Below, one piece after another: positions 2,925-3,260 of a stretch of 9,599 nucleotides of DNA (positions are counted from its first letter, which is position 1; each line of letters starts with the position of its first letter). The stretch is from IMG/VR virus record IMGVR_UViG_2713896901_000003, positions 1 to 9,599 of that record, one strand, 5' to 3'. Both the position numbers and the translations under genes were made by a program. The stretch is from a virus. Lineage: Duplodnaviria > Heunggongvirae > Uroviricota > Caudoviricetes. Below the pieces are notes generated by a model. The model searched no databases. It had not been told where the DNA came from and saw only the letters and a program-made list of their open reading frames with translations.

Positions 2925-3163
2925 GTGATTCCATCAAGCGCATACTTAAAAGCCCTGCTAATTGGACTGATGTCTGATGCCATTCCGAAAGCACACAAGA
3001 CCGAAGCAATAAACCGCCAGTCCGTTCTGCTTATCTTCGATTCATGACAGCCAATCATCTTTGCCAGACCACGCTGGGTAAGCGTTGACAGGTTGATGAG
3101 TAAATCTGTTTCTGCGCGATCAACGTCACGCTGTGATAGTTTGCTGTAACTTGTTTGTTCCAT
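2864..3163 (-). CDS. cII: CII transcriptional activator homolog (99 aa)
   Basis: C-terminus [18 protein letters not shown] closely matches the lambda CII C-terminus ([17 protein letters not shown], from memory). HTH-like segment [19 protein letters not shown]. Located between cro and O. Confidence 0.9.
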
Positions 3164-3173
3164 TTCTTATGAT
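3141..3173 (+). promoter_or_regulatory. Predicted PRE (CII-activated promoter toward cI)
   Basis: TTGC-N6-TTGT at 3141-3154, antisense within cII codons 4-8, the same place as the lambda TTGC-N6-TTGC CII site. TATGAT -10 at 3168-3173. Confidence 0.5.
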
Positions 3174-3190
3174 TTCCAATAGTGAATATT

Positions 3191-3214
3191 ACGCATCTGT
3201 TGATGCGTTTTTTG
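3191..3214 (+). terminator. Hairpin plus T6 tract between cro and cII (tR1 position); reads as an intrinsic terminator on the plus strand
   Basis: 7-bp stem ACGCATC (3191-3197) / GATGCGT (3202-3208), 4-nt loop, then TTTTTT (3209-3214). On the minus strand the same hairpin is preceded by an A-run and followed only by AAUAUU. Confidence 0.45.
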
Positions 3215-3215
3215 T

Positions 3216-3253
3216 GGGGACGAATCATCCCCGACCTGATTGTTTAAAGAGCG
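3216..3253 (-). promoter_or_regulatory. nutR (boxA + boxB) downstream of cro
   Basis: Minus-strand RNA reads CGCUCUUUAAACA (boxA-like, 3253..3241), then the hairpin GGGGA-UGAUUCG-UCCCC (3232..3216). The identical hairpin occurs at nutL. Confidence 0.7.
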
Positions 3254-3260
3254 GTGTTAC

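Follow-up and report, generated by a model that had tools for sequence, protein, structure and literature searches.

A tR1-position stem-loop in the cro-cII spacer of a lambdoid phage and a rare allele with the look of an intrinsic terminator inside PRE

Phages lambda and H-19B have at tR1 a weak terminator that depends on Rho and is suppressed by N, with a rut site overlapping nutR (PMC3526286). For lambda, dyad symmetries in front of cII have also been discussed, as has an IHF site there (PMC5869508). According to the summary of Palmer et al. (2009) given in PMC6593788, lambda PR polymerases pausing at tR1 are located over PRE, which results in about 5-7-fold interference with this promoter. 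The Shearwin group wondered whether such pausing over PRE is a special case of lambda (PMC6593788).

The window, that is the whole stretch of 9,599 nt analysed here, is a lambdoid early region in reversed orientation relative to the lambda map. Its main features are as follows.

367-1818, minus strand: DnaB-like helicase gene
1793-2692, minus strand: O-like gene
2864-3163, minus strand: cII (99 aa), called CII in homologous phages and in the annotation of E. coli E2865
3261-3506, minus strand: cro, annotated in relatives as Cro or transcriptional regulator
3567-4304, plus strand: cI
4926-4964, plus strand: nutL, with boxA GGCTCTTTAA at 4926-4935 and boxB at 4948-4964
plus strand: bet and exo
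7124-7182, plus strand: cIII thermoregulator RNA (Rfam RF01804, full-length, 88.5 bits)

The cII segment matches 286 phage records with 91-94% identity, mostly Stx phages. The spacer between cro and cII and the adjoining start of cII contain the following elements.

3141-3154, plus strand: predicted CII-binding direct repeats TTGC-N6-TTGT, within cII codons 3-7 on the opposite strand, one mismatch from TTGC-N6-TTGC
3168-3173, plus strand: predicted PRE -10 hexamer TATGAT, 13 nt past the second repeat
3191-3208, either strand: tR1 stem-loop ACGCATC-TGTT-GATGCGT, a perfect 7-bp stem with 4 GC pairs and a 4-nt loop
3209-3215, minus strand: A/C-rich, rutB-like spacer ACAAAAA, which separates boxB from the hairpin in the rightward RNA; its complement belongs to the plus-strand T-run (3208-3213)
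3216-3232, minus strand: nutR boxB GGGGATGATTCGTCCCC, the same 17-mer as at nutL 4948-4964 (plus strand)
3244-3253, minus strand: nutR boxA core CGCTCTTTAA, just past the cro stop

Read along the minus strand, the cro stop is followed by boxA, boxB, ACAAAAA, the hairpin, 27 nt and the cII ATG, the hairpin standing 7 nt past boxB. Since this boxB is shared with nutL (0.03 matches expected by chance) and boxA follows the cro stop, positions 3216-3254 are nutR and the hairpin occupies the tR1 position, just where a previous reading of the letters alone (hereafter the sequence-only reading) had put it. In nearly all relatives boxA is kept as AAAGAGCG. The hairpin aligns onto the lambda tR1 dyad GTATGCA-N6-TGCATAC. 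Rut segments flanking boxB would be expected to be C-rich, G-poor and unstructured; here the upstream segment contains 8 C and 4 G among its 28 nt, and the spacer downstream has 6 A, 1 C and no G. The spacer is G-free yet C-poor in comparison with the ACAACCA of relatives.

The locus is similar to lambda tR1 in the succession of cro, boxA, boxB, an A/C-rich spacer, a 7-8 bp hairpin, an A/T-rich tail and the cII ATG. In both phages PRE reads back through the hairpin, and the rightward strand has no U-tract. Unlike in lambda, where the stem has an unrelated sequence, the hairpin here starts from about +12 of the PRE RNA (about +19 in lambda), and on the PRE-sense strand the stem is followed by U5GU, the counterpart of spacer ACAAAAA, in place of the lambda sequence ACCAUAGG. 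The nutR/tR1 regions of the H-19B/933W type found in Stx phages are related through the same cII family (>90% identity) and through a homologous stem, ACTCATC-TTTC-GATGAGT, which differs by a compensatory pair. These regions have another boxB, a PRE-side flank of the GATTA type without a T-run, and a distance from the -10 to the stem that is longer by 7 nt.

The CII repeats and the -10 hexamer align column for column with lambda PRE, in which AAGTAT occupies the same distance from the second repeat, and the spacing to the cII ATG (3161-3163, minus strand) is also the same. The CII site of relatives reads TTGC-N6-TTGC. By this homology, a CII-dependent PRE is predicted, with its start at about 3179-3181, 10-12 nt ahead of the stem; in lambda, PRE +1 is coordinate 38343. 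The geometry proposed in the sequence-only reading, a PRE start near 3180 and a 7-bp hairpin some 10 nt beyond it, is thus reproduced: the repeats and the -10 at lambda spacing lead to 3179-3181, and the perfect stem at 3191-3208 lies 11 nt downstream. The whole hairpin would be found at +12 to +29 of the predicted PRE RNA, which is closer to PRE by 5-7 nt when compared with lambda or the common variant. Between the -10 and the hairpin (3174-3190), 7 nt (ATAGGTA) are missing relative to the 933W-type phages (L001, L005 and others). The -10 hexamer TATGAT is nearer to the consensus than the TACTAT or TAAGAT of these relatives. A tie between this stronger -10 and the T-run was considered and set aside, being inseparable from physical linkage (18 nt apart); TATGAT also occurs beside other hairpin modules.

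Conservation of the hairpin was followed in 251 loci that were anchored on cII homologues only and represented three CII families in IMG/VR and GTDB genomes. In 232 of them, a hairpin with at least six of seven positions paired was found at +24 to +50 from the cII ATG. Perfect stems of at least 7 bp were present in 41% of the 128 distinct segments, against 0.8% of shuffled sequences and 2% of the cII-coding control. The stems at the tR1 position are diverse and include ACGCATC/GATGCGT, TATGCGT/ACGCATA, TATGCGC/GCGCATA, GCAGACC/GGTCTGC, TCGCATC/GATGCGA and GACGGCC/GGCTGTC. Compensatory variants of the window stem were found as well (ACTCATC/GATGAGT, ACCCATC/GATGGGT): at stem position 3 the 933W-type relatives have T-A or C-G versus G-C in the window, with some mismatched intermediates. 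The lambdoid cro-cII spacer thus contains this hairpin as a conserved element of structure. The counts of G.U and A.C combinations (24 versus 22) give no sign as to which strand's RNA is constrained.

Scanning of IMG/VR with ACGCATC-N4-GATGCGT returned mostly chance palindromes, and filtering for the context of a boxA and a CII site left 31 lambdoid loci with the exact ACGCATC/GATGCGT stem in the same place. These loci cover at least six CII families and several boxB types, and in 27 of the 31 the motif TTGC-N6-TTG[CT] lies upstream of the hairpin. Among sequenced phages the common hairpin/boxB module is almost without a match, the exceptions being three Yersinia phages, in boxA only. The hairpin is also found at a frequent recombination junction, and most phage matches to the cII module end at 3191, its first base. 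At this mosaic junction (loci L103-L218), the identical stem joins at least six CII families to several boxB types. The hairpin resembles a common linker for recombination between lambdoid modules.

On the plus strand, the stem is followed by TTTTTGTGGGG, which begins TTTTTGT. The six T reported earlier after the hairpin are really there, but the first of them, T3208, closes the stem, so that the element must be read either as 7 bp with U5GU or as 6 bp with U6GU. The form of an intrinsic terminator on the PRE-sense strand, likewise asserted by the sequence-only reading, is confirmed (7 bp, loop of 4, UUUUUGU). When only perfect stems of 7 bp or more are counted that have 3 or more GC pairs, a loop of 3-8 nt and 5 or more T among the following 6 nt, it is one of four sites on both strands of the window, compared with a mean of 0.055 in dinucleotide shuffles; the terminator-like motif is therefore not a random match. 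A d'Aubenton-Carafa-type discriminant, which serves as a relative yardstick only, gives d = +22 for the PRE-sense motif, or +7 if the T positions alone are summed. On the same relative scale, the accepted terminators of the window score +8 (oop-like) and +32 (tR2-like), and the homologous or analogous versions of the PRE-side motif are negative: -17 (common version), -36 (933W type), -30 (type C) and -47 (lambda). The one exception is the Superficieibacter locus L096 with d = +17, an independent lineage in which a T-run follows a similar stem. On the rightward strand, the tail after the stem is AAUAUUCA, no U-tract, in agreement with the earlier remark that a good one is lacking there; d is -31, and -18 in lambda tR1.

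The hairpin energy is -9.6 to -10 kcal/mol, and the two strands compared give -9.0 and -9.6 kcal/mol. Against shuffled sequences, the fold has z = -6.5 for a minus-strand 31-mer and z = -2.3 for a PRE-sense 46-mer. Canonical intrinsic terminators such as that of lambda oop, whose counterpart in the window is at 2888-2918, resemble this motif in having GC pairs in the stem, a short loop, a U-run next to it and d above zero. They differ in that the stem here is weaker (4 GC pairs, -9.6 kcal/mol) and lies early, at +12 to +35 of the transcript, and not behind a gene. Furthermore, true terminators normally retain their U-tract, whereas the one found here is not conserved in homologues.

The T-run belongs to a rare allele. 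In the boxB family GGGACGAA[A/T]CATCCC, of which the nutR described here is a member, 21 loci have TGGTT as the 5 nt past the stem, one has TTGTT and eight have TTTTT; the eight TTTTT loci represent one identical haplotype from the PRE -10 through boxA. Relative to the common flank TGGTTGT, this haplotype has TT in place of GG, and the rightward strand ACAAAAA in place of ACAACCA. The homologous spacer of relatives is ACAACCA or ACAACAA (PRE-sense TGGTTGT or TTGTTGT), and in 933W-type relatives sharing this cII the stem is followed by GATTAATT. In all, a T-rich PRE-side tail (at least 5 T in 6) was present in 3 of 108 distinct hairpin-plus-flank modules, against 3.1 expected from the binomial at the observed T frequency of 0.37. 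The PR-sense side showed such a tail in none of the 108. The exact 99-nt allele occurs in 10 of 5426 complete E. coli genomes, 100% identical and without internal variation, a uniformity that speaks neither for nor against selection on the T-run. Three cII alleles and two cro-side junctions occur together with the haplotype, and its replication modules also vary, with a DnaB-like helicase in the window and a lambda-type P in E2865. Upkeep of the U-tract in homologous elements, which is a signature of selection for termination, is not seen, and nothing indicates that the T-run is selected as a PRE terminator.

The stem-loop is likely to act on PR transcripts as the tR1 element for pausing and Rho-dependent termination. 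Its resemblance to a terminator on the PRE strand would then be an unselected by-product, which may partly attenuate PRE in this allele. The rightward PR transcript would carry cro, boxA, boxB, the A/C-rich rut-like spacer and then the tR1 stem-loop, which by analogy with lambda and H-19B would form part of a weak, N-suppressible and Rho-dependent zone of pausing and termination. Class I pauses are hairpin-stabilised and occur 10-12 nt past the stem. A pause of this kind would bring the active site of the PR polymerase to about 3179-3181, and the enzyme would then be parked over the PRE -10 and +1, similarly to the pause-enhanced occlusion of PRE in lambda. The plus-strand T-run is no more than the complement of the spacer, in which two C of the usual ACAACCA have changed to A in one haplotype. 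Such C-to-A changes beside a conserved hairpin result in U5GU on the PRE transcript and in an intrinsic-terminator score.

With the window allele, a fraction of PRE transcripts would be terminated at about +34 to +37 (about 3213-3216). Some termination of this kind probably takes place. Because the PRE-sense motif is as good as the accepted terminators of the window (the oop-like one has d = +8 on the relative scale), a real effect on PRE is plausible, and our guess leans towards one large enough to be measured. The termination should not be highly efficient, and lysogeny should not be abolished, given that the haplotype persists in several mosaic prophage types.

The same T-run could be supposed to make the hairpin a selected attenuator of PRE or the 3' end of an RNA of about 35 nt that depends on CII and is complementary to the cII leader from -17 to -51. 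With a 3' hairpin and a U-tail of the Hfq-like kind, such an RNA would adjust the establishment of repressor or exert feedback on cII. This is improbable, although several observations agree with it. The motif passes the strict criteria with d = +22 or +7 on the relative scale and lies wholly inside the predicted PRE transcript; the haplotype has outlived several recombination events; the L096 lineage has independently a T-run after a similar stem; and short CII-linked antisense RNAs have precedents in OOP and aQ (PMC12197685). On the other hand, the T-run is missing from nearly all homologous and analogous hairpins and is found at chance frequency (3/108 versus 3.1), it marks a single rare haplotype (10 of 5426 genomes), and the A/C-rich spacer of the other strand accounts for the same bases. 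The sRNA surveys consulted, on lambda and on EHEC prophages (Hfq-CRAC and Pas for EHEC), report none at cro-cII. By its name, lambda PreS was considered as a PRE-derived sRNA and was rejected; it is encoded between ea10 and ral in the PL operon.

The attenuator suggested by the sequence-only reading is not supported, in view of the same non-conservation and chance frequency of the T-run and of the folding. In folds of 3180-3225 and 3180-3260, the hairpin forms alone with the 11-nt 5' segment unpaired and no antiterminator alternative appears, so the element is not an attenuator in the regulated sense. The 11-nt 5' segment of the PRE RNA was also found to hold no leader peptide and no ligand- or protein-binding element. 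The leader attenuators of trp and his are comparable in having a terminator-like hairpin early in the unit, ahead of a gene, but they depart from this locus in precisely these features: antiterminator pairing, a leader peptide or a binding element. A search of Rfam with the complete window (either strand, E up to 1) gave no match in 3141-3260; its matches are the cIII thermoregulator and a Trp leader. It is equally doubtful that the two substitutions made the tR1 hairpin a working PRE-leader terminator, so that PRE yields mainly the antisense RNA of about 35 nt and repressor establishment is attenuated. If this were true, the haplotype would be a natural allele that shifts the set point between lysis and lysogeny, possibly with a new CII-dependent small RNA.

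The sequence-only reading also raised a bidirectional element. That PR transcripts would be stopped as well, without Rho, by an intrinsic tR1 is very improbable. The hairpin is equally good on both strands (-9.0 and -9.6 kcal/mol), and an upstream A-run with a hairpin makes up half of the classical bidirectional layout. However, the minus-strand tail AAUAUUCACUAUU has 3 U in its first 8 nt and d = -31 on the relative scale, a PR-sense T-rich tail occurs in 0 of 108 modules, and the tR1 terminators of lambda and H-19B depend on Rho (PMC3526286). The minus-strand tail rules out a bidirectional intrinsic terminator.

Less credible still is that the inverted repeat acts as DNA, bound by a dimeric protein such as a phage regulator or an IHF-like protein, and not as an RNA structure: the 31 loci indeed share an identical ACGCATC/GATGCGT while their cII genes and boxB types differ, G.U asymmetry shows no strand preference and lambda has an IHF site ahead of cII (PMC5869508), but the unrelated stems of other modules keep their complementarity (TATGCGT/ACGCATA, GCAGACC/GGTCTGC, GACGGCC/GGCTGTC and lambda GTATGCA/TGCATAC), so that a structure fits better than a specific recognition sequence, and the consensus of the phage operators at 3507-3566, ATAAC-N4-GTTAT, is a different one. 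The ATCAA of the stem arm and loop was weighed as an IHF-like site and dropped, as it matches no more than a 5-mer of the consensus.

The locus is best described as tR1, an ordinary element, in a new phage, here in the form of a rare allele that imitates a terminator within PRE when read on the complementary strand. The allele is a natural experiment, in which comparison of TTTTT with TGGTT would give the cost to repressor establishment of a canonical terminator placed 12-35 nt into PRE. In the survey, a hairpin at a fixed short distance inside PRE was near-universal in lambdoid cro-cII spacers. This suggests that the tR1 pause over PRE is a general lambdoid design.

Several other features of the window were noted. 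Operator-like palindromes ATAAC-N4-GTTAT are repeated in the OR region (3507-3566) and again at 4790-4880, beside a PL-like promoter (TTGACC-17-TATCTT, 4852-4880) that lies upstream of nutL. The presence of these operators at both OR and the PL-like promoter points to a distinct immunity specificity. An N-like ORF at 5120-5326 (plus strand) encodes 68 aa from a GTG start after GGAGG and has an arginine-rich N-terminus. It is overlapped in another frame by a remnant ending MTCVGRQKMKLGSKPLI (region 5120-5376, plus strand), and this ending resembles the C-terminus of lambda N. The equivalent stretch of E. coli E2865 is a partial 'regulator' pseudogene in RefSeq. The N of the window phage may be a mosaic or truncated gene.

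The Rfam Trp_leader match at 43-149 (minus strand) reached 23.6 bits where the gathering score is 41. It is almost certainly a spurious match, due to the terminator hairpin downstream of the helicase gene (72-49, minus strand). Downstream of cI and a 98-aa ORF (4345-4641), a GC-rich 7-bp hairpin with T-runs on either side is found at 4646-4665 on both strands. It is plausibly a bidirectional terminator at the tIMM position. A counterpart of OOP, which is known as an antisense RNA of cII, is located at about 2846-2923 (plus strand), with a hairpin and T-run at 2888-2923 (11-12 bp, -16 kcal/mol) antisense over the 3' end of cII. The position and layout of this hairpin match those of the lambda oop terminator, and an OOP-like antisense RNA is probably made in the window.
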